Shown here: in pieces, positions 4,951 through 21,300 of the stretch | Layout: each line of letters starts with the position of its first letter | How positions within the stretch are numbered: position 1 is the stretch's first letter | Source of the DNA: Pseudoalteromonas translucida KMM 520 | Lineage (GTDB): Bacteria; Pseudomonadota; Gammaproteobacteria; Enterobacterales; Alteromonadaceae | Direction of reading: 5' to 3' | DNA: 32,000 nt | Assembly: GCF_001465295.1 (NCBI RefSeq) | Contig: NZ_CP011035.1 | Location: forward strand, 60,001 to 92,000 | Made by a program: the position numbers and the translations under genes | Notes under the pieces: model-generated | Database searches by the model: none | What the model saw: only the letters and a program-made list of their open reading frames with translations | Told to the model about the DNA's origin: nothing

Positions 4951-5056
4951 TTCAAATCCCTGTGGTTGTTAATAATAATAGTTATATGTTAGAGAGTTTA
5001 AAAATAATAGCTAGGGCGATGAAGTAATTGCGTGGGTAGACTGAATCTGTAAAACG

Positions 5057-5087
5057 GTTCAGCTGTAAAGGGGGTTTACAACTGAAC
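5057..5087 (-). terminator. Hairpin terminator downstream of pxpA
   Basis: 13-bp stem with one mismatch, gttcagctgtaaa-ggggg-tttacaactgaac, 16 nt after the pxpA stop. On the minus strand it is followed by cgtttta. Confidence 0.5.
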
Positions 5088-5102
5088 ATATTAAATAATG
5101 AT

Positions 5103-5831
5103 TTAACGTTTACACAATAACTTTATTTGTTGAATGAGTGCAATACCGGCAGGGTTATCGCCGTGAACGCATAAACTATCGGCATCTAAAATTAATTTTT
5201 TACCTGAGCGCGTAGTTACGCTGCCATCAGCTAACAGTTGCTTTACTTGCTCAATTAAAGCTTGCTCGTTATGCACACTGCCTGCTAACTGCCTTGACAC
5301 TAAAAGCCCTTCGTCGGTGTATTGTCTGTCGGCAAAGGCTTCTAATATTAATTTTAACCCTAAAGTGTCGGCTATTTTTTGATGCTTTTTAGCATCAGCA
5401 GTAGCTAAAATCATTAATTTTAATGGGCTAGGGTAGTGTGCTACAGCGCTCATTACGCTAGTTAAAAGCTGCTCGTTAAGCATCATGTCGTTATAAAGTG
5501 CGCCATGGGGCTTAACATAACTAAGGCTTAAGCCTTGTACTTTGGCCATACCTTCTAGCGCAGCAATTTGATAGTGCAGGCAATTTGTAAGCTCGCTTGC
5601 ACTTAGCGCCATAGATCGTCTGCCAAAACCTTGTTGATCTGGGTAACTAGGATGAGCGCCAATTTGTACCTTATGCTGTTTTGCCAGCTTGAGCGTATTT
5701 GCCATTACATCGGCATCACCCGCATGAAAACCACAAGCAATATTAGCCATATTAATGTGCGGCATAGCTTCTTCATCTAAGCCCATTTTCCAAGCACCAA
5801 AGCTTTCACCTAAATCGCAATTTAATAGCAT
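5103..5831 (-). CDS. pxpA: LamB/YcsF family protein, 5-oxoprolinase subunit A-like
   Basis: 242-aa ORF with the family-typical N-terminus LNCDLGESFG and HPSYPD, VKPHGALYN, VHGD motifs. Starts 11 nt after the upstream GH3 gene stop, so the two are probably co-transcribed. No pxpB or pxpC in the window. Confidence 0.8.
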   Translation of the reverse strand: MLLNCDLGESFGAWKMGLDEEAMPHINMANIACGFHAGDADVMANTLKLAKQHKVQIGAHPSYPDQQGFGRRSMALSASELTNCLHYQIAALEGMAKVQGLSLSYVKPHGALYNDMMLNEQLLTSVMSAVAHYPSPLKLMILATADAKKHQKIADTLGLKLILEAFADRQYTDEGLLVSRQLAGSVHNEQALIEQVKQLLADGSVTTRSGKKLILDADSLCVHGDNPAGIALIQQIKLLCKR

Positions 5832-5842
5832 TTAAGGTCTCC

Positions 5843-7705
5843 TTACTTTTTTATTGTTACAGGCAAAGTGCCATTAGCTGGCAATTTGCCTAACAGTACG
5901 TGTGCTAAAGCGGTAAATGCGGGGCCTGTTACAATATCGTTTTTATCGTGATCAATATTATAGGCATACGATGCAAGTACAGCATGGGCATAATCGCTAA
6001 ACTCAGCAATGTCGTAAGGCGCTCTTAGGCTAATAAATACCGTGTTTTTATTTTGTTTTTTTGCCACTATTAATAACGACTCAAGTGCTTTTGGTTGCTG
6101 TGCGTTGCTAAGTGCAAATTGAGGATCGTTTTTTAAATCATCCATACCGCCAATTTCTACCGCACTTTGATTTGGCGTTGCGTTGCCCGCTATAACAACA
6201 TCGGCTTTATTAATGTCTGCATGTGCTTGTTGCGGATCGAAGCCTTGCAAGCTGCTACAAGTATAGTTAAGCGTATGTTTACTAATGCTTTGCAGGGCTT
6301 GTTGTAGTGCCATGCATTTGCGAGTGTCGGGCATTATAATATGAACATGTTGCCCGGCTTTAAGTGTAAGTGGCAGTGTATTATGAGTGTTTTTAACTTG
6401 TGTAATAGCCTCTACCGCTAGTTGTGCTTCAATATCGCGATGCGCTTTACTCCCAATAACGTGCTTGGCGTTAACTAGCGCATTAATGGCATTAAAATTG
6501 GTGTTAAGTTTAAACTTACTTTTAAGCGCTGTAATACGCTGCGCCGACTCAGTTATTTCTTGCTGATTAAGTTGCTTAGACTTAACTGCAGCGACTAAAT
6601 CTTTAATGAGCTGATCAAGTTTGGTTAAGTCATCTATGCTGCGAATTTCTATTGGCATTAAGGCAATATCGACCCCTGCAGCAAAGGTATTTATAACCGC
6701 TTGAGTAGGATTGAAAAAGTGACTAATACCTGCCATATCAAGTGCATCGGTTACTACTACGCCATTATAATTAAGCTCATGGCGTAAAATATCAGTAATT
6801 ATTTTACGCGACATAGTTGCGGGTTTAATCATGCTTTTACCATCAACACTGGTAAAGGTACTGCTATCAAGCGCAGGGTACTGAATATGTGCGGTCATGA
6901 TCATGCCAGGGCTTTGCGTGGCAATAATCTGTTTAAAAGGGGCTAGGTCTTGTTGGTAAATAACCTCTTTTGCATGGTTTACCCTAGGTAAGCCCGTATG
7001 GCTGTCTACGTTAGTGTCGCCGTGGCCCGGAAAATGTTTAAGCGAACTAATAATGCCGTTATTTTCAAACCCAGCAACTTGAGCGGCACCTAAAGTTGCC
7101 ACGTGCTTAGGGTCCTCGCCAAACGAGCGCACATTAATAACGGGGTTATCTGGGTTCATATTTACGTCGATTGAAGGCGCATAATTAACGTTAATACCCA
7201 AAGCACTTAGCTCGGTGGCCATTACTTTAGCGGTTTGCGCGGCAAAATAACTGTCGTGCTTTTCAAAAGTAGCACCAATCGACATATTACCGGTAAACGA
7301 GGTTGCTACATCGCGCGGTAGGCGTGCAACACGGCCGCCTTCTTGATCAACCGAAATAAACAAAGGTAATGCAGAGCTTGATTTACTTGCAGCCTGTTGT
7401 AATTGTTGGTTAAGGGTAATTATTTGTTCAATAGATTGGGTGTTTTCAGAAAATAAAATCACCCCGCCAATATTGTATTTACTAATGGCGTTTGCTAGTT
7501 CATCGGGTAATTGAGTCATTGGCGTTCGACACTGTTTACTTGCACCTTGGTGACAAAAATAGCGAAAGTCTAGTAATAGCTTTTGGCCAAGTTGTTGTTC
7601 AAGCGTAAGCGCAGGTTGAGCTATAGAAGATTGTAATGGCATTAAACACCCGATTAAAAAAGCAATAGACGATACAGCATACTTATTTAGCAAAACACAC
7701 TCCAA
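5843..7705 (-). CDS. Glycoside hydrolase family 3 beta-N-acetylhexosaminidase-like lipoprotein
   Basis: 620-aa ORF with the NagZ/GH3 motif KHFPGHGDT and a VTDALDM region. N-terminus has a lipobox (LIGC). The start is uncertain: TTG at 7705, or TTG at 7693, which lies 6 nt after a GGAG. Confidence 0.85.
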   Translation of the reverse strand: MECVLLNKYAVSSIAFLIGCLMPLQSSIAQPALTLEQQLGQKLLLDFRYFCHQGASKQCRTPMTQLPDELANAISKYNIGGVILFSENTQSIEQIITLNQQLQQAASKSSSALPLFISVDQEGGRVARLPRDVATSFTGNMSIGATFEKHDSYFAAQTAKVMATELSALGINVNYAPSIDVNMNPDNPVINVRSFGEDPKHVATLGAAQVAGFENNGIISSLKHFPGHGDTNVDSHTGLPRVNHAKEVIYQQDLAPFKQIIATQSPGMIMTAHIQYPALDSSTFTSVDGKSMIKPATMSRKIITDILRHELNYNGVVVTDALDMAGISHFFNPTQAVINTFAAGVDIALMPIEIRSIDDLTKLDQLIKDLVAAVKSKQLNQQEITESAQRITALKSKFKLNTNFNAINALVNAKHVIGSKAHRDIEAQLAVEAITQVKNTHNTLPLTLKAGQHVHIIMPDTRKCMALQQALQSISKHTLNYTCSSLQGFDPQQAHADINKADVVIAGNATPNQSAVEIGGMDDLKNDPQFALSNAQQPKALESLLIVAKKQNKNTVFISLRAPYDIAEFSDYAHAVLASYAYNIDHDKNDIVTGPAFTALAHVLLGKLPANGTLPVTIKK

Positions 7706-8634: not shown

Positions 8635-9690
8635 TTATAAGCTCCGTTGCTGATAAGTTTTTAACAACATAATTAAAAAGAAAGGGCCACCAATAGCACT
8701 GGTTATTAAGCCAATAGGTAACTCTGCAGGGAGCATCACAGTACGTGCAAATAAATCAGCAAAGCTTAATAACAGCGCCCCGCCTAAAATACTTGCTGGC
8801 ATTAAGTAACGATGATCGGGCCCTAAAACAAGCCTTACAATATGCGGCGCAATAAAACCAACAAAGCCAATAATACCGGTAATGGAGACGGCAGCACCGG
8901 TGCACAATGCCGTACAAATAAATACCTGTTTTTTAAGCCGCGTTACATTAATGCCTAAATGTTTAGCTTGCGCTTCGCCTAGTAAATATAAATTAAGAGG
9001 TTTTGCTAGGCGTAGTAATAAAACCACACTCAAAACAATAATACATAAAGAGGGCAGCATCATGGCAAAGTGATTACCGGCTAACGAACCCATACTCCAA
9101 AATGTTAAATCGCGCAGTTGTTGCTCGTTACTAATTAATGTAAGCCCACCAATGAGCGATCCCACAATGGCGTTAACAGCAATACCTGCTAGTAATAAGC
9201 TTATAATTGTAAACTGACCACTGTGAGCGCTTAATCTATAAATAAATACACACACACTAATACAGCCAATAAATGCGCCAACCGGTACTGCATAAACACC
9301 CAAGGTGCTGCTAAAGTTAGCAAATAAACTACTGCCTAATACTATAGTGGTTACAGCGCCAAGTGCTGCACCACTCGACACACCAATTAAACCCGGATCG
9401 GCTAATGGGTTTCTAAAAATTGCCTGCATAGCACAGCCACAAGCGGCTAGCCCTGCACCTACCACCATGGCTAACACTATGCGCGGTAAGCGTATTTGCC
9501 AAATAATAGCGTTTTTAAAGCTATCAGTTTCAAGCTGGTTAATTATTGCCACTATTTCACTTAAGCTTAAATTTACGCCACCTTTACTTAGTGCAATAAA
9601 AAACATAAAAACACAGGCTAAAAATAAACAGGGAATGGCCATTTTTCGCTGTTTTTGTTCGGTTAATAGCGTACTTCCTAATGCCAGCAT
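8635..9690 (-). CDS. hmuU: Heme ABC transporter permease (FecCD family)
   Basis: 351-aa polytopic membrane ORF with a FecCD/BtuC-type pattern (RLPRI, NPLADPGLIGVSSGA, GPFFL). Lies between hmuT and hmuV with 0-5 nt gaps. Confidence 0.9.
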   Translation of the reverse strand: MLALGSTLLTEQKQRKMAIPCLFLACVFMFFIALSKGGVNLSLSEIVAIINQLETDSFKNAIIWQIRLPRIVLAMVVGAGLAACGCAMQAIFRNPLADPGLIGVSSGAALGAVTTIVLGSSLFANFSSTLGVYAVPVGAFIGCISVCVFIYRLSAHSGQFTIISLLLAGIAVNAIVGSLIGGLTLISNEQQLRDLTFWSMGSLAGNHFAMMLPSLCIIVLSVVLLLRLAKPLNLYLLGEAQAKHLGINVTRLKKQVFICTALCTGAAVSITGIIGFVGFIAPHIVRLVLGPDHRYLMPASILGGALLLSFADLFARTVMLPAELPIGLITSAIGGPFFLIMLLKTYQQRSL

Positions 9691-12551: not shown

Positions 12552-14639
12552 ATGCGTATTACCAAACTGGCAGCTTGCCTTGCCGCTCTGTCTTCGCCCT
12601 TAATGGCAGCTGATCTTGAAAACCCTAACCACACTAATATGCCGGTTACAGCACTTGATGCCGTAACCGTAACGGCAACCCGTACCGCAAAGTCTGCACT
12701 AAATTCAGCTCAAGCCGTTAATGTTATTAACGCAGAACAAATAGAGCAAGTACTTGCTAGTAGCGTATTCGACAGCCTTATTAGTATTCCTAACGTTACT
12801 GCAACCGGTGGCCCACGTAATATGGGACAAAAGTTTAATGTACGTGGTTTTAGTGACGCAGAAGATGTGTTGATAAGTGTAGATGGTGCAATTCAAACAT
12901 TTGAAAAGTATCGAATGGGAAGTTTTTTTTCAGATCCTGAACTTTATCGCTCTGTAAATGTTAAACGTGGACCAAGTACTGTTTTGCATGGCGGTGGTGC
13001 TTTAGGTGGTGTGGTAGAAATGGAACTTAAAGATGCCAGCGACTTTTTAGCACCGGGTGAGCAAGGTGGCGTTAAAGTTAAGCTAGGTCACCATGGCAAT
13101 AATAATGAAAATAACGGTACCGTATATGCTTATGCACGCCCTACCGACTCATTAGATATACTTACTTCGTACGTAAAGCGCAGCAGTGACGACTTTAAGT
13201 TATCAAATGGTGAAACGCTCGATAATTCGGGTATTGAGGCCGAATCGCTGCTTTTAAAAGTAGAGTACTACTTAAACGAAGACTCCTTAATTGGATTGTC
13301 GTATACAAAAAGTGAAGACAATCAGCGCACCGAGTTTAATACGACCGATCCTGGCGCATGGGGTATGGTATATAGAGAAATAGAACAGTCGGTTACTAAT
13401 TTAAGCTATGAGCTTAACCCCGCCAATAATCCTTATGTAAATTTAACAGCACGCTTAGGGCGCACCCAAAGTCAGGTTGTTGAAAGTGATGGTTCAGGCA
13501 CTTTAAAAGATTTTATTGGCTTAGAGTCTAACTACGAATACAACATAACCACACTTGATATTGCAAATACATCTTTAATTAAACAGCATACTTTAACCTA
13601 TGGCATGCAGTATTCTGAAAAAGATCGAGTGGGAACCAAGTTAAGTTATCCATGCCTTAATTTAGACATGCAAACTTATCAATGTATTGATTATGCAGAG
13701 CAAGCAATACAAGACGAAATAACATCTCAGCCCGGAGGTACTCAAAAACGTATAGGCGTTTACCTACAAGACGAATTTATTTGGCAGGCATTAACGCTTA
13801 CCACAGGGCTGCGCTATGAAAAATATAAAACCACAGCAACTTCTAGCTTTGCCAACTCATTTAATAATTTAGATACCGATGTTGAGCACTCTCAAGTGGT
13901 GCCTGCATTAACCGCCCACTATCAAATTAATAACCAACTGGCTGTTTTTTCAAGTTATCAGCAAGGATTTAGAGCCCCATTAATTGATGAGCTTTATGAT
14001 CAATATGGTGGGCGTGATCCGGCACTCGAACTTAAAGTAGAAAACAGCACCAATAAAGAAATTGGTGCGAGTTACCAAAACCAAAACATATTTACAAACA
14101 GAGATGCCTTAACTGCCCGTGTTATTTATTTTAAAGTAAAAATAGATGACGAAATTCAATCAAACACCAATATAGCCACTAATCCCGAACCCGCAGCGCG
14201 TTATAACAATAGTGGCGAAAACCAACGAGACGGCATTGAGTTTGAAATAAATTATGCACATACCTTAGGTTATGCCAACTTTTCTTATAGTCGAATATCA
14301 GGTGAAAACCAAAACAATGAACCACTATGGTATTTACCAGCCGATAAGTTTGCACTGAGTAGCGGATTAAACTTTTTTAACGACATGCTAAAAACAGGCT
14401 TTAACATTCAACATGTTAATGATCGCACAGTGCTTGTATCTGGCATTGAGCAGCAACATAAAAGTTATGTTTTAGCAGGTATAAACGCCAGTTGGGATAT
14501 TAACGACAGCTGGAATGCCCGCTTAGCAATAGATAATTTATTTGATAAAGAATACCAAGTTATAGCTGGTACTACAGGCGCCATTGGCGACTATGGTGTT
14601 GGCCGTAATATTAAAACGCAAATTAGTTTTAAATTTTAA
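12552..14639 (+). CDS. TonB-dependent heme/hemoglobin outer-membrane receptor
   Basis: 695-aa ORF with a signal peptide (ends PLMA) and a TonB box-like DAVTVTATR. Plug domain and beta-barrel ending in the terminal F (QISFKF). Contains a FRAP motif (QQGFRAPLIDELY), characteristic of heme receptors. Good RBS (ggag). Confidence 0.85.
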   Translation: MRITKLAACLAALSSPLMAADLENPNHTNMPVTALDAVTVTATRTAKSALNSAQAVNVINAEQIEQVLASSVFDSLISIPNVTATGGPRNMGQKFNVRGFSDAEDVLISVDGAIQTFEKYRMGSFFSDPELYRSVNVKRGPSTVLHGGGALGGVVEMELKDASDFLAPGEQGGVKVKLGHHGNNNENNGTVYAYARPTDSLDILTSYVKRSSDDFKLSNGETLDNSGIEAESLLLKVEYYLNEDSLIGLSYTKSEDNQRTEFNTTDPGAWGMVYREIEQSVTNLSYELNPANNPYVNLTARLGRTQSQVVESDGSGTLKDFIGLESNYEYNITTLDIANTSLIKQHTLTYGMQYSEKDRVGTKLSYPCLNLDMQTYQCIDYAEQAIQDEITSQPGGTQKRIGVYLQDEFIWQALTLTTGLRYEKYKTTATSSFANSFNNLDTDVEHSQVVPALTAHYQINNQLAVFSSYQQGFRAPLIDELYDQYGGRDPALELKVENSTNKEIGASYQNQNIFTNRDALTARVIYFKVKIDDEIQSNTNIATNPEPAARYNNSGENQRDGIEFEINYAHTLGYANFSYSRISGENQNNEPLWYLPADKFALSSGLNFFNDMLKTGFNIQHVNDRTVLVSGIEQQHKSYVLAGINASWDINDSWNARLAIDNLFDKEYQVIAGTTGAIGDYGVGRNIKTQISFKF

Positions 14640-14645
14640 GTTGCC

Positions 14646-14673
14646 GTAATGGTCACTTAGGCCATTACCTTTT
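14646..14673 (+). terminator. Intra-operon hairpin (possible attenuator) between receptor and hmuS
   Basis: gtaatgg-tcacttagg-ccattac followed by ctttt, in the 45-nt gap before the hmuS RBS (aggag). Confidence 0.4.
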
Positions 14674-14684
14674 AGGAGTAAATT

Positions 14685-15737
14685 ATGAATACCTTAGTTA
14701 ACCAATATCAAACATTAAAAGTAGCGCAGCCCAATATTCGCAGTGTAGATGCCGCCGTACAACTTGGCACCACAGAAGCACAACTTATTGCTTCTCAAGT
14801 AGGGCAGCAAGCAATTAAATTAAATATTAATCAAATCGAAAACATTCTCAAAGGGTTAAAAAAACTAGAGCATGTAATGGCACTTACACGCAACGGCGTT
14901 GTAGTGAGTGAAATTAAAGGCTGCTACGAAAAACTGTATACCTCACAGCGTAATAATAAAAAAATGGGGATAGCAATTAACCCAGGAGGCATAGATTTAA
15001 GGTTGTTTTTATCGCAATGGGCCAGTGTATTTGCTGTTAAGTTAAATAACATTGTGAGCATTCAGTGCTTTGATAAACATGGCCGAGCCGTTCATAAAAT
15101 ATTTAATACCGATAAAACTAATTTAACCGCGTATCAGGCACTAATTAATAAATATAGCGACCCAGAGCAAAGCACTACATTAATGGTCGAGCCAATCAAA
15201 ACCCCAGAGCTTGAGACCACACCGCAAGAAAATATAAATGTAGCAGGCTTTTTAACCGCATGGGAAAACTTGCAAGATGTGCATCATTTTCCGGCATTAT
15301 TAACCCAGTTTAAAGTAGGCAGAATACAAGCACTTGAACTTGCACAGCCCAATTGGGCACAAGAAATACCAACCGCAAGCTTACCGTTAATATTTAGTAC
15401 GTTAAAAGAGCAGCAAAGCGAGATAATGATTTTTGTAAATAACAACGCCGCGGTGCAAATATACTCAGGAACACTCAATAACTTAAAGCAAGTAGGCCCT
15501 TGGTATAACGTACTTGATGAAGACTTTAATTTACATATTAAAAGTGAAGATTTAGCGCGTGCTTTTGTCGTTAAAAAGCCAACAGATAACGGTAATACTG
15601 TTGTGTACTCAATAGAGTTTTTTGATGAGAGCAGCAACACAGTTATGACCTTATTTGGCCGCAGGATTGAAGGTAAAGAGCAACCGAAGCAGTGGATAGC
15701 ACTGTGTAATAAATTGAGCGACAGTTATAAAAGTTAA
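14685..15737 (+). CDS. hmuS: Hemin-degrading / heme-trafficking protein (HemS/ChuS/HmuS family)
   Basis: 350-aa ORF of the two-repeat HemS/ChuS architecture. Lies directly downstream of the heme receptor. Confidence 0.8.
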   Translation: MNTLVNQYQTLKVAQPNIRSVDAAVQLGTTEAQLIASQVGQQAIKLNINQIENILKGLKKLEHVMALTRNGVVVSEIKGCYEKLYTSQRNNKKMGIAINPGGIDLRLFLSQWASVFAVKLNNIVSIQCFDKHGRAVHKIFNTDKTNLTAYQALINKYSDPEQSTTLMVEPIKTPELETTPQENINVAGFLTAWENLQDVHHFPALLTQFKVGRIQALELAQPNWAQEIPTASLPLIFSTLKEQQSEIMIFVNNNAAVQIYSGTLNNLKQVGPWYNVLDEDFNLHIKSEDLARAFVVKKPTDNGNTVVYSIEFFDESSNTVMTLFGRRIEGKEQPKQWIALCNKLSDSYKS

Positions 15738-15783
15738 CTTGATAAAACACATTTCTAATTATTGTCTACCTATAGGTAGGCAA

Positions 15784-15943
15784 TAATTAACCGGAACTCT
15801 GGTTAAGAGATTTACTAACGTTTTGAATTATAATTAGATTTAAATTTATTTTCTTTAGCCATAAGTTTTCAGTGAAAACAAGGCGAATTTACGCGTCAAT
15901 AACTGCTTGAGATAGGTTTATTATTCGGAGCTTAGGTTAATTA
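15784..15943 (-). repeat. MITE-like palindromic intergenic repeat, copy C (inverted, internally deleted)
   Basis: The reverse complement aligns with 2558-2762 end to end (taattaacctaagctccgaataataaac...cttaaccagagttccggttaatta). It lacks about 45 bp that, in copy B, lie between two cagctatt direct repeats. Confidence 0.65.
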
Positions 15944-16048
15944 GTACTGCACATTATTAAAGTTGGTTAGATTCTTGGTTTTAAAGCAGGTAGTATAAAA
16001 TGTATTGAATATATTATGCATGCAAGTTGTACGTGAGGTATAAACAGG

Positions 16049-16252
16049 GTGTTTCACAAATTATTACCAACATTAAACCTCAGGTTTCTTATACTATTAC
16101 TTGTTTTGCTTGCCTCTATTTGCACCTTAGTAAGTAGTATGCTACTTATCAAGTGCAAAAAGAGCAGTTAATCAACTACACGTTACACAGTAATTACGCT
16201 TATGCTAATAAGCTTGCTTCAGCAACAGATAGCTTTCTTGAACATTTGCAGG
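16049..16252 (+). pseudogene. 5' fragment of a membrane sensor diguanylate cyclase gene (frameshifted)
   Basis: GTG start after gagg, then a TM helix (LRFLILLLVLLASICTLVSSMLL). A -1 frame change near 16145-16147 is needed to continue into YQVQKEQLINYTLHSNYAYANKLASATDSFLEHLQ, a typical start of a periplasmic Cache-like sensor domain. The reading frame then runs into the TnpB element. Confidence 0.5.
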
Positions 16253-16259
16253 GTGCATT

Positions 16260-18058
16260 CTCGTCGGCTTTAGCTACGAGTTAAGCCCTGCGGTTTTAGT
16301 GGTTGTGTTTTGCTACAGCTTTACTCTATTTTACAGCTAGTTCAGAGGGTGGCTTACGCTGCGAGCGAACACGTCACAGCGGTATTTTGCAACGAATGCT
16401 AGGTGTACTTGGTTCTTATAAACGCAGTTCCTGCCAGTTCTCCATTCGTGCATATTAAACTCATGATTGTTTTTTGTATAGCGCTATAATATTCTGTGTT
16501 TAGTGACTGTTCAAGGCATTTAATTAATGGCAATTCGTGGCTTTAATATCGAAATAACTGACAAAATGAGTAGTAAAGCAGCTACTCATTTTGCGCGGTG
16601 GATCGGTGGATCGAATGTCATGCGTAATCAGAAAATTGAGGAAAGCCTCGAACTTATCCGAGCCGACAAAGGCTCGGATATTGATCAGAAGTATGCAGGT
16701 ATTAAGGCTAAACCTGAGCTTTCCTTCTTAAAAGAAATACCACCACAAATACTTCGAAACGCTGCAAGTATGTTATTTAGTGATATTAATGCGTGCCGAA
16801 GTGGGCTTCGGAAGTTTCCTAAGCCCAAAGGGCGTAATCGCAAGCGTAGCTGTGTAGTAACAAAGGAAATGTTCATCCTTGAGCCGCTAAACGAAGGTCG
16901 GGCACTTCTGACATTCTACGAGAAGGCTTCGAAGAAGCCCGCACGTATGTTTTCTATAAAGCTCGACTACGAACCCGACCAGCTCGCAAAGCAGTTCCGT
17001 ATATCGCGCCAAGGTAGACGCTTCTACCTCTCAGGGTCGTATAACGACGGTGTTGAGTCTGCAACGAATGAGGAACTGTTGAAAGGCTTTGTTGCACAAA
17101 GCCTCAGTGATGACGAATTACTATCCCAAATCACAGGTATCGACCGTGGCGTTAAGCTGCCTATTGCAACAAGCGACGGTTTGCGCAAAGCCTATAGCCC
17201 TGAGACGACTGAAAGGCTAAAGCGATTAGTGCAAAAGAAGGCTCGGTATCAGCGTATTTTGGCGCGTAAAAAGCGCCAAAACAATAACAAAAACACTAGA
17301 CGTGTTGAGTCTAATGAGCAGCAAAAGCTAGCAGATAAGATAGCTAACTTCGACGCCAAGACTGCGCGAATTAGGCACGACTTTTTGCACCAGACCTCGA
17401 AAGAGGTCGTGCTTTCGGCGAAGTCTATAATCGCTTTGGAAGACTTAAAACTCAAAAACATGACCAAGCGTGCTAAACCAAAGCGCGGCAAGCATGGCCG
17501 TGGCTATGCGCGTAACAACGCGAATGCCAAGAGCAGTTTAAATCGCTCATTATTAAATGTCGCTTTAGGAAAGCTTGGTGACTTCATCAAGTATAAAGCG
17601 AACGACTACGGGAAGGCCGTAGTCGAAGTGAGCCCCGCAGGCACGTCGCAGACGTGCCATATGTGCGGTGAAAAAAATACGATAAGACCTCAGCAAGATA
17701 CATTAATTTGTTTAAATGGCTGCGGAACTTTTCATGCGGACGACAATGCCAGCATTGTCGTAGCGCAACGAGCTGTACCTTACATACAAGAGTCTACGTT
17801 TGCCGAGAAAGCAAAAACTCGTAAGAAAACAGCAGTACGTAAAAAGGCGGTAACACCGCCGTTGGGGAGCGAACTGGCCTCAACTGAAAAATCAGGGGAG
17901 TTAGAGACTGCATCAACTGATGTGTCCCTTGTGTGCTCACGCACGCAAGCTGACGTAAGACCGTCATCGACGGCAAGCCTTGTACAAAGAAACTCTCTTA
18001 CAACAATGGACGCCAGTGTTACTGGCGTCTTGGAAACTCGATAGTTTTAGCTACGAGT
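16260..18058 (+). mobile_element. IS200/IS605-family (IS1341-like) TnpB-only element; ends approximate
   Basis: Contains a tnpB ORF and no transposase gene. Bounded by a 22-nt imperfect direct repeat (16260-16281 and 18037-18058, 18 of 22 identical, with the last 13 nt TTTAGCTACGAGT identical). Visibly more G+C-rich than the flanks. Interrupts a GGDEF gene. Confidence 0.65.
16527..18044 (+). CDS. tnpB: TnpB-type RNA-guided RuvC endonuclease (IS605 OrfB family)
   Basis: 505-aa ORF. RuvC-I GIDRG (D206), RuvC-II ALEDLKLKNM (E305), zinc finger CHMCG...CLNGCG (C377/C380/C395/C399), RuvC-III HADDNAS (D405/D406). A basic Arg/Lys-rich helix lies between RuvC-I and RuvC-II. A low-complexity tail of about 85 aa follows the last catalytic motif and overlaps the structured 3' end. 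A TATAAT lies at 16485-16490 upstream. Confidence 0.85.
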   Translation: MAIRGFNIEITDKMSSKAATHFARWIGGSNVMRNQKIEESLELIRADKGSDIDQKYAGIKAKPELSFLKEIPPQILRNAASMLFSDINACRSGLRKFPKPKGRNRKRSCVVTKEMFILEPLNEGRALLTFYEKASKKPARMFSIKLDYEPDQLAKQFRISRQGRRFYLSGSYNDGVESATNEELLKGFVAQSLSDDELLSQITGIDRGVKLPIATSDGLRKAYSPETTERLKRLVQKKARYQRILARKKRQNNNKNTRRVESNEQQKLADKIANFDAKTARIRHDFLHQTSKEVVLSAKSIIALEDLKLKNMTKRAKPKRGKHGRGYARNNANAKSSLNRSLLNVALGKLGDFIKYKANDYGKAVVEVSPAGTSQTCHMCGEKNTIRPQQDTLICLNGCGTFHADDNASIVVAQRAVPYIQESTFAEKAKTRKKTAVRKKAVTPPLGSELASTEKSGELETASTDVSLVCSRTQADVRPSSTASLVQRNSLTTMDASVTGVLETR

Positions 18059-18078
18059 AGTTCATAGTCAGCAATTAA
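17790..18078 (+). ncRNA. Putative omega RNA (right-end guide RNA) scaffold plus flanking guide; boundaries inferred
   Basis: Dense GC stem-loops in an otherwise AT-rich genome:
- ggcgg-taaca-ccgcc (17846-17860)
- cagggga...tcccttg enclosing catc-aact-gatg (17893-17931)
- gtgc-tcac-gcac (17933-17944)
- ccgtc-atc-gacgg (17961-17973)
- perfect 9-bp stem gacgccagt-gtt-actggcgtc (18009-18029)
- terminal CTCG...CGAG palindrome (18037-18057)
The position, overlapping the tnpB 3' end and running to the right end, matches known omega RNAs. Confidence 0.45.
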
Positions 18079-18620
18079 GAACAGCAATGTTAAAAGGCGA
18101 AAGTATTTTACAGCTGCAAATAGGGCAGCTACGCCACGATGCACAAACAGATCCTCTAACAGGGCTTCATAATCGCAGAAGCTTAAAAGTATGGCTTGAT
18201 AAATTAATTCAAGAACAAACGTTATTTACCATTTTAGAAATAGACATCGACTTTTTTAAACGCGTAAATGACACATATGGCCATGACAAAGGCGATGAAA
18301 CACTCAAAGCATTAACCGTGCTTATTCAAAGTATTGCTCGCAAAGACGATATTGTTGCGCGCATTGGCGGCGAAGAGTTTATACTTGTGATACCTAATCA
18401 AAACAGTGAAGGTGCATTTTAAATAGCTGAAAGGCTGCGCCTTGTTGTTGAGTCGTCGCATATAGATACAGTTGGTTATATAACCATATCAATAGGTATT
18501 GCTAGTTACCCAGAGCACGGCACTAATATTGAGCAAGTATTTAAAAAAGCCGATAACGCACTTTACTATGCAAAAGAGCATGGTCGTAACCGTAGCGTTA
18601 TTGCTAATTTAATAGAGTAA
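18051..18620 (+). pseudogene. 3' fragment of a diguanylate cyclase gene (GGDEF domain, frameshifted)
   Basis: The frame opens right after the element: ...QLRHDAQTDPLTGLHNRRSL..DIDFFKRVNDTYGHDKGDETL..RIGGEEFILV. It stops at 18420-18422. The +1 frame continues IAERLRLVVESS..ISIGIASYPEHG..ADNALYYAKEHGRNR to the TAA at 18618-18620. Removing one T from the attttaaa run would restore GAFKIAERLR. Confidence 0.75.
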
Positions 18621-18682
18621 CTGAAAGGCCCTTAACTAATCTAAACAAGGTTTAATATTTTAAAATTATTTAAATAATGAAC

Positions 18683-18710
18683 TTGACACAAATTAAAACT
18701 TCTATATAGT
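18683..18710 (+). promoter_or_regulatory. Sigma-70 promoter of cspA with a long 5' UTR
   Basis: TTGACA (18683-18688), 16-nt spacer, TATAGT (18705-18710). This predicts a leader of about 150 nt before the ATG at 18871, as in cold-shock cspA mRNAs. Confidence 0.5.
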
Positions 18711-18870
18711 AAGCCGCAGCTAGAAAGAAAGCATGTAATCTATAAATCTCCATTTCGATGTTGTATAAGTAATACTTGTAGTACCGTCCTGAAGTTTTTA
18801 AAGTACCATCTCATTTTTTGCTACACCCGCTCATATGAGCATATTTTTATTTTTATATCAGGATATTACA

Positions 18871-19080
18871 ATGTCAAACATCGTATCAGGTACAGTTAAG
18901 TGGTTTAACGAGTCTAAAGGTTTTGGTTTCATCGAGCAAGAAAACGGCCCAGACGTTTTCGCACATTTCTCAGCAATCAAAAGCGAAGGTTTCAAAACTT
19001 TAGCTGAAGGCCAACGTGTAGAGTTCACTCTTTCACAAGGTCAAAAAGGTCCACAAGCTGATAACATCACAGCTGTATAA
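18871..19080 (+). CDS. cspA: Cold-shock protein, CspA family
   Basis: 69 aa from the internal ATG: [23 protein letters not shown]...DVFAHFSAI, containing the RNP1 and RNP2 motifs. The longer track ORF start at 18835 was rejected. Confidence 0.9.
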
Positions 19081-19105
19081 TTTTACTTTTTAAGTAAAAT
19101 GAAAA

Positions 19106-19128
19106 AAAGCGCTTAAGGCGCTTTTTTT
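19106..19128 (+). terminator. Rho-independent terminator of cspA
   Basis: agcgc-ttaag-gcgct followed by T7. Confidence 0.75.
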
Positions 19129-19246
19129 GTGCCTAAAATTTGGTATTCCTCGGTAACTTCCCCTTTAGTATTGTATTTCAATGCATTAAATTTAACTGCC
19201 AAACTCCGTATCGATTTTGTGAATGCAATTTTATATAAAAGGTGTC

Positions 19247-19295
19247 AGGCTCCAAGCTTTAGGCTTTAGGCTTTAGGCTCTAGGTTTCAGGCTTT
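19247..19295. repeat. Heptanucleotide microsatellite (AGGCTTT)n, 7 units
   Basis: aggctcc aagcttt aggcttt aggcttt aggctct aggtttc aggcttt, read directly from the sequence. Confidence 0.8.
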
Positions 19296-19963
19296 ATATC
19301 TCGGGAACAATTTGCGAAGCTCAATGTGTATAGCTTTAGCCGTAAATGCAAAAAGGGCTGCGAAAGTAGGCGGGAGTTTACCTCGCGCTTTTTGCTGTGT
19401 TTTTGATGCTGGGTATAAACTTACCCTGGGCGAGTAGCTTGTTGCCTGCCGCACGCTCGTAGTACGAAAAACGTATTTGTAAAAGGTGATAAGATCACAA
19501 AGTAGTGATTTAAACCCTATAGATTAGATACCAGTATGAGGTAAAAACAGGTTTTATATTTCAGGTTTATATTTAAGGTTTTAGGCGTCAAGTGTTTGAT
19601 GCAAGCTCAATAAAGTAACTAAGCAAACTCAATGTTTAGCTTTGGCTGTAAATACGAAAAGGGACAGCACTCAGGCTTGAGCTGCCTGCCAGTTAACTAT
19701 CAATTATCAACTTCTTAATTATTAGCGAGCAGTTATAATCCCACCCAAGTTAATGGTTATGGAAGCCACAGGGAGTTTACCTCGCACGCTTTTTACTGCT
19801 TTATATTGCGCTTATGGCAGGGGACTGGTGTTGATCTGTGGTGAATACCATTTTAGTGTTTAAAGGTGGTGGTTGGCAGGTGGTTCTTTATTTTATTATA
19901 TGATTCAAAGGTTAGCCTTTAAGCTCATTATAAACCTATTTATAAGCCTATTTATAAGCCCAA

Positions 19964-19988
19964 ACGATAAAAGGGCCTTGCGGCCCTT
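19964..19988 (-). terminator. Probable terminator of nupC
   Basis: On the minus strand: gggcc-gcaa-ggccc followed by ttttatcgttt, about 90 nt after the nupC stop. Confidence 0.5.
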
Positions 19989-20076
19989 GATGAAGTATCG
20001 TTCAAGTCAGATAGAGCTTTAACCCCTTAAAGCACTATCTTATTGTTTTGCAACAGTGGTTCATCTCATTAAGTTT

Positions 20077-21300
20077 CTAAGCTAGCGAGAGGAAAAATCC
20101 AGCAATTGCGGCGCTCATAAGGTTAGCCATAGATCCTGCTAACACTGCTCTGAGCCCTAAGCGAGCGATATCCTTTCGCCGACTAGGCGCCATACCGCCT
20201 AATCCACCTAGTAAAATGGCTATCGATGATAAGTTAGCAAAGCCACACAGTGCAAAAGTAACAATTGCTTGTGTGTGCGCACTTAACGTATCGCGATAAT
20301 TTATAAAGTCTAAGTAAGCAACAAATTCATTCACTACTAACTTTTGACCAATAAAGCTACCGGCTAGTATTGCTTCATTCCATGGCACACCAAGTAACCA
20401 TGCAACAGGCGCAAATACATAACCTAAAATTTCTTGCAGCGTTAATGTCGGGTAGTCAAACCAGCCGCCAATACCGCCTAATAAACCGTTCAACAATGCA
20501 ATTAATGCTACAAAAGCAAGTAGCATTGCACCTACGTTTAGTGCCAAGTGCATACCACTTGCAGCACCCGATGCAGCTGCATCAATAACGTTAACGGGCT
20601 TTTCATCATCTAAATCTAAGTCAGCTAAATTGTCTTTAGGCGTTTCGGTTTCTGGCACAATCATTTTGGCCATTAAAAAGCCGCCAGGAGCCGCCATAAA
20701 GCTAGCTGCTATTAAATACTTAAGGTCAATACCAATAATTACGTAACCGGCCATAACAGAGCCTGCTACCGTTGCTAAACCACCTACCATTACGGCAAAT
20801 AATTCCGATTTGGTCATAGTGGCAATAAAAGGTTTAACAATTAACGGCGCTTCTGTTTGACCAACAAAAATATTAGCAGTGGCCGATAGCGATTCAGTAC
20901 GTGAGGTTTTTAACAGCTTTTGCAAGCCGCCACCTAAAATCTTAATAACCCACGCCATAATGCCTAAATGATATAACACGGCCACTAACGCAGAGAAAAA
21001 CACAATTACCGGCAGTACTTGAATAGCAAAAATAAACCCTAATGTATCTTGCGATGCTAAAGGTCCAAACAAAAAGCTTATACCGTCGTTAGCAAAACCA
21101 ATAACCGATGAAACAGCGGAAGATACACTTGCTAATGCATTTTTACCTGCATCAAAAAATAATACAAAACCACCAATAATTACTTGCATCGCAAATGCGA
21201 TACCTACCGTTCTAAGCTTTATAGCTTTGCGATTAGTTGACGCCGCAAATGCAATAGCTAGCAGCACAAACATGCCAACTACGCTCATAAAAGTTGTCAT
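20077..21300 (-). CDS. nupC: NupC/NupG family concentrative nucleoside transporter
   Basis: 407-aa polytopic membrane ORF with CNT-family conserved blocks ([19 protein letters not shown]). Adjacent to udk and deoBD. Confidence 0.85.

Follow-up and report, generated by a model that had tools for sequence, protein, structure and literature searches.

A probable tnpA-deleted IS200/IS605-family element with TnpB and a predicted omega RNA in a GGDEF gene of Pseudoalteromonas translucida

Insertion sequences (ISs) of the IS200/IS605 family, such as IS605 and IS608 of Helicobacter pylori and ISDra2 of Deinococcus radiodurans, encode the Y1/HUH transposase TnpA and the RNA-guided nuclease TnpB. Near each end they carry an imperfect hairpin, both on one strand; terminal inverted repeats are lacking, and the target is not duplicated. 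They insert 3′ of a motif of 5 nt, TTGAT for ISDra2, and in IS605 itself tnpA and tnpB are divergent. Described here is an element of this family from Pseudoalteromonas translucida KMM 520. It lies in a stretch of 32,000 nt (RefSeq assembly GCF_001465295.1, contig NZ_CP011035.1, positions 60,001 to 92,000 of the forward strand) which as a whole is called the window below; all positions are counted from its first nucleotide.

Elements of the family that have lost tnpA are common. A tnpA gene is found near only about 25% of tnpB genes, elements without one are thought to be mobilised in trans, and Geobacillus stearothermophilus has about 50 elements that lack tnpA (Meers et al., bioRxiv 10.1101/2023.03.14.532601). 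A homing model for TnpB was proposed in the same work, which also reported that the terminal motif of the ISGst elements is related to the transposon-adjacent motif (TAM) and differs from it at two positions.

The window element (16243-18065, 1823 nt) is, with a probability of about 0.85, a non-autonomous, tnpA-deleted derivative of the IS200/IS605 family, of IS605-type layout, that has retained TnpB and its omega RNA. It inserted 3′ of TTGAA within a GGDEF gene of about 250 codons and then lost about 300 nt with the Y1/HUH core; the deletion spared the two hairpin ends as well as tnpB and the omega RNA. Hairpin arrangement, lack of inverted repeats and of target duplication, and insertion 3′ of a 5-nt motif are all shared with IS605, IS608 and ISDra2, and the terminal motif, TTCAT, differs from the TAM, TTGAA, at two positions, as in the ISGst elements. 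Unlike in IS605 and ISDra2, tnpA is internally deleted. The state of the element is that of the tnpB-only derivatives of G. stearothermophilus (ends, tnpB and omega RNA intact, no transposase, mobility dependent on TnpA in trans), but here the loss event is still legible, with both tnpA stubs kept, and the element is single-copy and fixed and not a proliferating family in its host. In itself it is nothing unusual: the state in which tnpB is most often found is the tnpB-only IS200/IS605 derivative, and the protein has already been named in RefSeq.

Ends of the element and the remnant of tnpA

The left end (LE, 16243-16299, plus strand) is a two-tier imperfect hairpin kept in all relatives. Its outer stem pairs 16249-16254 with 16285-16290 and its inner stem 16260-16264 with 16276-16280, and compensatory changes were found in 9 of the 13 predicted pairs. 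The host DNA just 5′ of it is the TAM TTGAA (16238-16242, plus strand), which is invariant at about 15 independent insertion sites. These sites differ in the sixth base and have unrelated flanks upstream. The right end (RE, 18033-18065, plus strand) is a hairpin with the terminal, transposon-encoded motif (TEM) TTCAT at 18061-18065. GAA at 18033-18035 pairs with TTC at 18061-18063, and helix 12 of the consensus fold described below has 7 compensatory pairs. All copies terminate in ...GTAGTTCAT and their flanks diverge immediately past it. The host flanks TTGAA and AGTCAG are unrelated, so there is no target-site duplication; inverted terminal repeats are also lacking, and the hairpins at both ends are subterminal and on one strand. 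A 22-nt direct repeat (D3, 16260-16281 and 18037-18058) corresponds to the inner LE hairpin and the RE hairpin. Readings of these two 22-nt copies as target duplications or CRISPR-like repeats were rejected for that reason, and the pair D3/D8, spaced by 1777 nt, was rejected as a longer duplication, the hairpins alone being conserved in relatives.

The junction was located through the host gene, where the empty-site comparison was possible at the protein level only, by alignment across the junction. Where the window has ...DSFLE-[IS]-SQQLR..., homologues that are not interrupted have ...SWYFE-SQQLK..., residues being neither gained nor lost, and this seamless alignment fixes the junction at 16242/18066. 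With the RE boundary at 18065, the guide of the omega RNA is expected to start at 18066, with AGTCAGCAATTAAGAA... The predicted guide segment, AGTCAGCAATTAAGAACAGC (18066-18085, plus strand), is host flank from the interrupted GGDEF gene and has no second match within the window; by analogy with described TnpB systems the guide would be 16-20 nt long. The reconstructed empty site is ...GATAGCTTTCTTGAA joined directly to AGTCAGCAATTAAGAACAGC... A first-pass annotation of the window had placed the limits of the element at 16260 and 18058 and the guide at 18059-18078. Both have to be moved: 16260 is the start of the inner LE hairpin, and the guide was 7 nt off, 18059-18065 (AGTTCAT) being conserved element sequence.

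In a subgroup of relatives without tnpA (L021, L024, L025, L027 and L033, 78% amino acid identity) the TAM is TTGAG, at three or more different sites. The change is accompanied by a compensating T to C directly 5′ of the LE hairpin (CATTCTCG to CATCCTCG), and this covariation of TAM and LE fits the IS608-type model, in which a DNA guide pairs with the cleavage site. The copy in L027 has a frameshifted tnpB. Since one tnpA-less form is present at three sites or more, copies without tnpA can evidently still move. The pair TTGAA/TTGAG is a natural TAM switch, the effect of which on TnpB specificity is testable.

The remnant of tnpA is on the minus strand at 16305-16453, in two pieces. The first, 16364-16453 (MHEWRTGRNCVYKNQVHLAFVAKYRCDVF), comprises codons 1-30; the second, 16305-16370, comprises the last 22 or so codons (about 128-149) in another frame and with an internal stop. 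About 97 codons are gone, among them those for the HUH motif and for the catalytic tyrosine. When the TnpA of locus L001 was searched against the window by tblastn, the two pieces were matched with E values of 2e-12 and 3e-5, and at the deletion junction window positions 16364/16367 correspond to 3540/3841 of L001, a gap of about 300 nt with alignment on either side. In the plasmid and phage collections no related element was found; the sole blastn match of the element to the plasmids was that of the tnpA stub (window 16368-16464) to an annotated IS200/IS605 tnpA on a Klebsiella plasmid.

Relatives show what has been lost. Among relatives taken from genomes and metagenomes, an ORF of 149-168 aa is present on the opposite strand, between left end and tnpB, in 18 loci, for example in Pseudoalteromonas sp. 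AOP31, Marinomonas algarum, Nitrincola schmidtii and Vreelandella rituensis, and belongs to Pfam Y1_Tnp (131.8 bits; Y1/HUH, IS200-like). These relatives thus share with IS605, IS608 and ISDra2 the combination of Y1/HUH TnpA and TnpB. Full relatives are about 2.12 kb long with divergent tnpA and tnpB, and in Vreelandella, Marinomonas and Nitrincola they are multi-copy within a genome, with 97-100% identity among copies. Together with the different sites occupied by relatives, this is indirect evidence that the family is mobile. The gene has been lost through other deletions in L014, L017 and the L021 group; loss of tnpA, having occurred by different deletions in separate lineages, is therefore recurrent.

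To judge from these alignments, the window element is a defective deletion derivative of an IS200/IS605 member and not an autonomous member. An intact Y1/HUH TnpA is absent from the window copy, which has only the stubs of 30 and 22 codons, and at this site the element is very probably immobile, as the first-pass annotation had thought possible. The same annotation had reported no tnpA on either side or strand, which holds for an intact gene but overlooks the two-piece remnant. Its further description as a transposase-less orphan is contradicted by the deletion scar, the two stubs and the Y1_Tnp gene of the relatives.

The divergent intergenic region between tnpA and tnpB (16454-16526) is a putative promoter region. 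It contains TATAAT at 16485-16490 on the plus strand and, in a promoter scan, a promoter-like site on the minus strand (16514 to 16486), although the number of minus-strand sites in that scan was no higher than in shuffled sequences. The sequence GCTATAATATTCTGT in this region is conserved across relatives.

TnpB and the structured 3′ end

The tnpB gene (16527-18044, plus strand) encodes 505 aa, a folded core to about residue 423 followed by a disordered tail; its protein record is ALS34614.1/WP_058374676.1 from P. translucida KMM 520, with the RefSeq name "RNA-guided endonuclease TnpB family protein". The NCBIfam model guided_TnpB matched residues 16-415 with 162.6 bits (cutoff 100), and the Pfam models OrfB_IS605 and Cas12f1-like_TNB (PF01385, PF07282) matched above their cutoffs. 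The RuvC triad is D206, E305 and D405, invariant in an alignment of 20 homologues (46-99% identity), and lies within the motifs GIDRG (204-208), ALEDL (303-307) and HADDNAS (403-409). These motifs, and the open frame running through a tail of about 85 aa, had been recognised in the first-pass annotation and were found as described; the zinc finger, given there as CxxC-N14-CxxC, is in fact CxxC-N14-CxxxC (CHMC...CLNGC, with C377, C380, C395 and C399). The catalytic residues also align with motifs of Cas12p (PDB 9jfs) and of 9j09, which was deposited as "Transposase". AlphaFold modelled residues 1-423 confidently and 424-505 as disordered (pLDDT, the predicted local distance difference test score, of about 30), and the top Foldseek matches of the model were the TnpBs of ISDra2 (8h1j) and ISFba1 (8iaz), with Cas12f also among the matches. 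Its motifs and modelled fold identify the ORF as a genuine TnpB in which the RuvC triad is intact. The relationship to ISDra2 TnpB is only distant, with a phmmer E value of 1e-7 over the C-terminal 75 residues and 17% identity in the structural alignment.

The length of 505 aa had been taken as a possible mark of a distinctive, poorly characterised long clade. This was rejected: members of the clade (86 clusters at 50% identity, E ≤ 1e-30) range from 430 to 520 aa, the core of the window protein ends at about residue 423, and beyond it the frame reads on into the omega RNA. Similarity with other TnpBs stops at about residue 440-450, and the stop codons of relatives fall anywhere over 450-505 aa. 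The disordered protein tail of 85 aa exists because the omega RNA overlaps the 3′ end of tnpB.

The omega RNA scaffold spans about 280 nt (17786-18065, plus strand), overlapping tnpB codons 421 or so to 505 and RE. A consensus fold of the last 300 nt was obtained from 15 elements, among which protein identity falls to about 45%; it has 67 pairs in 12 helices, two of them long-range. The local helices are at 17796-17822, 17846-17860, 17861-17884, 17910-17923, 17932-17945, 17961-17973, 18008-18030 and 18033-18063, and further segments pair 17894-17900 with 17993-17999 and 17904-17909 with 17976-17981. Compensatory double changes were found in 39 of the 67 pairs. Pairing is possible in 94.4% of alignment cells, compared with 38-45% after a shift of the partners by 1-3 columns. 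The covariation score of 0.42 (about 0.085 in the shifted controls) was reached by none of 500 shuffles. The window copy retains 66 of the 67 pairs. Conserved G-U pairs work on the plus strand only, so the RNA is a plus-strand one. The dense stem-loops noticed earlier in the last 270 nt or so, with a perfect 9-bp hairpin at 18009-18029, are thus genuine, the single-sequence fold of the region having a z score of -3.6.

Codon positions give the same boundary. In six 505-aa relatives, 73% of third positions are variable over codons 1-415, with a synonymous divergence (dS) of about 1.0 and a ratio of non-synonymous to synonymous divergence (dN/dS) of 0.10. Over codons 416-505 only 19% of third positions vary (17% of first and 12% of second positions), dS is 0.10 and dN/dS 0.6. 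The transition near codon 420 (nt 17786 or so) is abrupt, with a 10-fold drop in dS, and this collapse of synonymous change shows that the tail is constrained as RNA and not as protein. From its covariation and constraint, the conserved multi-helix RNA at the 3′ end of the element is an omega RNA. In contrast with those of described IS200/IS605 elements its scaffold is long, and it has no Rfam family; at the gathering threshold Rfam gave only cspA in the window, and a permissive search gave matches at chance level. The earlier description of the locus as a nuclease with a guide RNA module therefore stands as regards TnpB and its omega-RNA-like 3′ end, but not as regards domestication, which is considered below.

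By analogy with the TnpBs of ISDra2 and the ISGst elements, transcription of tnpB would run through RE, and the last 280 nt or so of the element with about 16-20 nt of flank would become the omega RNA. The complex of TnpB and omega RNA would then recognise TTGAA followed by AGTCAGCAATTAAG..., that is, the empty allele, either excised or never occupied. Cutting of the empty allele and recombinational repair from an occupied copy would restore the element. The resident copy would escape cutting because TTCAT, and not TTGAA, precedes the guide match. Excision or movement would be impossible without TnpA unless a cognate TnpA acted in trans.

The anatomy of a marine gammaproteobacterial TnpB clade that had not been characterised is thereby resolved (TAM TTGAA or TTGAG, TEM TTCAT, both ends, an omega RNA of about 280 nt and the guide start), sufficiently for the system to be built and tested as a compact editor. 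The locus is also a clean example of tnpA being lost while tnpB and the omega RNA persist.

Population pattern and competing explanations

The neighbourhood was compared in 24 contigs, including six isolate genomes, and the commonest allele occurs in 161 contig-index blocks. Its neighbours are, in order, a TonB receptor gene, hemS, the element, the GGDEF fragment, cspA and nupC, the same at all 10 places listed. From this identical neighbourhood it follows that the P. translucida, P. nigrifaciens and P. haloplanktis group has a single copy of the element, fixed at this site. The window, L015, L018 and L019 have the same insertion and the same tnpA deletion.

Across strains sharing the site (L018, L019 and L036-L045) the element is 3-20 times less diverged than its host neighbours (16243-18065 compared with 14066-20556). 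For tnpB dS is 0.007-0.015; the values are 0.05-0.09 for hemS, 0.09-0.15 for the TonB receptor gene, 0.04-0.05 for nupC and 0.07-0.18 for the GGDEF fragment. The non-coding stretch from LE to the ATG of tnpB has 0-1 differences in 284 nt. In the right flank 27 sites vary over 355 nt, in the element 10 over 1823 nt. For the window and L018 alone, 9 of 1823 nt differ in the element and 27 of 797 in the flank (Fisher's exact test, p = 4e-8). Part of the strain sample had been picked for an identical protein. Only the non-synonymous counts are biased by this, and the pairs free of the bias, window with L018 and with L019, give the same low-divergence pattern. In some strains flank polymorphism is back within about 12 nt of the RE and LE junctions, in others within about 60-100 nt. 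A recent insertion may have swept through diverged strains by recombination, conceivably aided by TnpB cutting empty alleles; an ordinary sweep or unusually recombinogenic flanks may also account for the low divergence of the element. The element is fixed at one site and yet much younger than its flanks. With this pattern one could examine whether homing by TnpB takes place in nature, and it is the only part of the present work that could lead somewhere new.

The first of these possibilities can be put in a stronger form, in which a transposase-dead IS entered recently and became fixed across diverged lineages of P. translucida, P. nigrifaciens and P. haloplanktis through cutting of empty alleles by TnpB and repair that copied the element in, with only short co-conversion tracts. 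Such homing between strains would explain the low divergence of both tnpB and the non-coding part of the element, the polymorphism close to the junctions, the lack of an empty allele and the signature of purifying selection on the GGDEF fragment, but at present we regard it as unlikely. Somewhat unlikely, too, is that the element is an inert relic, with tnpB and the omega RNA unexpressed or inactive and intact in appearance because the insertion or the last sweep was recent. A tnpB dS of 0.007-0.015 leaves little time for decay, which has in any case begun nearby (tnpA is deleted and both parts of the GGDEF gene are frameshifted in the window strain); the related copy L027 has its tnpB frameshift, and the promoter scan gave no strong promoter. 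Set against this, all catalytic and zinc-binding residues are present, 66 of the 67 omega RNA pairs are kept, and the ORF is intact in every full-length member of the 24-member cluster.

A domesticated TnpB, immobilised and kept with its omega RNA for a host function such as control of the GGDEF fragment or defence, had been suggested in the first-pass annotation. Like the TldR proteins, which are nuclease-dead TnpB-like repressors (bioRxiv 10.1101/2023.11.30.569447), the window protein is of the TnpB family, sits at a fixed chromosomal site and has no transposase. Every strain examined has one copy of the element, always at the same fixed site and with the 505-aa ORF intact, tnpA is destroyed, no empty allele is known, and the GGDEF fragment just downstream still has a dN/dS of about 0.1-0.2. 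The tnpB core of the clade has 2 non-synonymous and 4 synonymous polymorphisms, a weak hint of purifying selection from counts that are tiny and partly biased by the choice of contigs with an identical protein. In contrast to the TldR repressors, however, the protein retains all three RuvC residues, its guide is nothing more than the neighbouring flank and matches nowhere else in the window, and neither transposon end has been lost. With a total divergence of about 0.3-0.5% an intact ORF would be expected even without selection, and domestication is very unlikely. A miniature type V CRISPR effector of the Cas12f, c2c8 or Cas12p kind was also considered. Cas12p and type V-U2 c2c8 are the closest matches in sequence to the RuvC and zinc-finger part, 9jfs being the best match among solved structures (E 1e-17, RuvC half only), and the NCBIfam model V_cas_c2c8 scored 124.8 bits. 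Cas12p ("Cas12 hacker") has been described as an early TnpB-Cas12 intermediate whose disordered C-terminal domain is a legacy of TnpB. However, the c2c8 score is far under its cutoff of 350 and that for Cas12f2 is 71 against 450, whereas the guided_TnpB cutoff was passed; the REC domain is much smaller than in these effectors and the protein has 505 aa compared with 500-740 aa. There is no array or suitable repeat within the window, and the gene lies between IS605-type ends, with tnpA in relatives. The lack of an array and the transposon context between them refute this reading almost completely.

The reading of the element as a tnpA-deleted IS200/IS605 derivative with retained TnpB and omega RNA is thus preferred, and several points weigh against it. 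A simple picture of an old, dead insertion does not predict that the element should be so much less diverged than its flanks. Neither an uninterrupted GGDEF orthologue nor an empty allele of the site was found, and the nuclease may have no natural target in today's population. A good sigma-70 promoter for tnpB was not detected by the promoter scan. The best 120 TnpA homologues included no cognate TnpA from P. translucida, so that mobilisation in trans in this host is unsupported. Finally, we infer the production of the omega RNA, its 5′ end, the length of its guide and cleavage.

One metagenomic sequence touches on the empty allele. L015, a Logan unitig from SRR11495310, corresponds to window 16213-18078 and begins exactly 30 nt (k-1) before the LE junction; its end is one base before 18079, which is polymorphic in other strains. 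The start could be a branch to an empty allele, a weak hint only, or equally a single-nucleotide polymorphism at 16212. That L015 is a repeat-collapsed copy was rejected, as it is the same locus including the flanks.

Host gene, neighbourhood and related loci

The interrupted gene encodes a diguanylate cyclase of about 250 aa with a transmembrane segment, a linker and a GGDEF domain. Its N-terminal stub (16049-16242, plus strand), with transmembrane segment and linker, is frameshifted in KMM 520 by the loss of 4 nt in a T-run at 16137; in L038 a 79-aa gene is called at this position. The C-terminal part (18066-18620, plus strand) matches Pfam GGDEF with an E value of 8e-30 and is identical to PTRA_b0080 of the KMM 520 genome. 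Its ORF from the ATG at 18087 has 111 aa in the window strain compared with 174-177 aa in other strains, where it starts 22 nt past RE and has the dN/dS of about 0.1-0.2 given above. The fragment may be expressed, possibly by read-through from the element. Two intact GGDEF homologues, P0054 and P0055, were rejected as empty sites, being paralogues beside dCache genes in other contexts.

The element has 45.9% G+C, compared with 36-37% in the flanking 2 kb and a window mean of 40.3%, in agreement with the G+C-rich block seen in the first-pass annotation; 5 of 267 windows of the same size elsewhere equal or exceed it.

About 650 nt downstream of the element, before the cold-shock gene, window 18713-19131 matches the Rfam cspA thermoregulator (79.1 bits, just over the gathering score). 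Downstream of cspA is a tandem array of GCTTTAG (5.9 copies, 19256-19296), and the same heptamer occurs in the loop of the LE and RE hairpins, GCTTTAGC; this is probably a coincidence. On the upstream side, an intergenic repeat of about 200 nt occurs at 2558-2769 and, inverted and 90% identical, at 15784-15943, with a partial direct copy at 1895-1990. These copies bracket a heme-uptake cluster of about 13 kb (the TonB receptor gene, hemS and others), and the repeat may be a regulatory element or one resembling a miniature inverted-repeat transposable element.

Three related loci have contexts of other kinds. The Tara contig L017 (ERR594345 k127_1401224) has two related tnpB copies, at 5001-6518 and 9402-9587, about 4.4 kb apart, and its neighbouring small ORFs have no Pfam matches apart from one to YoqU, giving a context that looks phage-like. 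A relative with 48% identity is present on a viral contig, L035 (IMG/VR UViG 2648501160_000003). In L020 (2140-2190 and 2223-2489), a metagenomic locus with intact tnpA, RE abuts what appears to be the 3′ half of a tRNA gene, with the T-arm GGGGGTTCGAATCCC and the acceptor end ...CTCCGCCA, followed by a cluster of tRNA-Ser, tRNA-Leu and tRNA-Arg genes, and the element there may have inserted into a tRNA gene.

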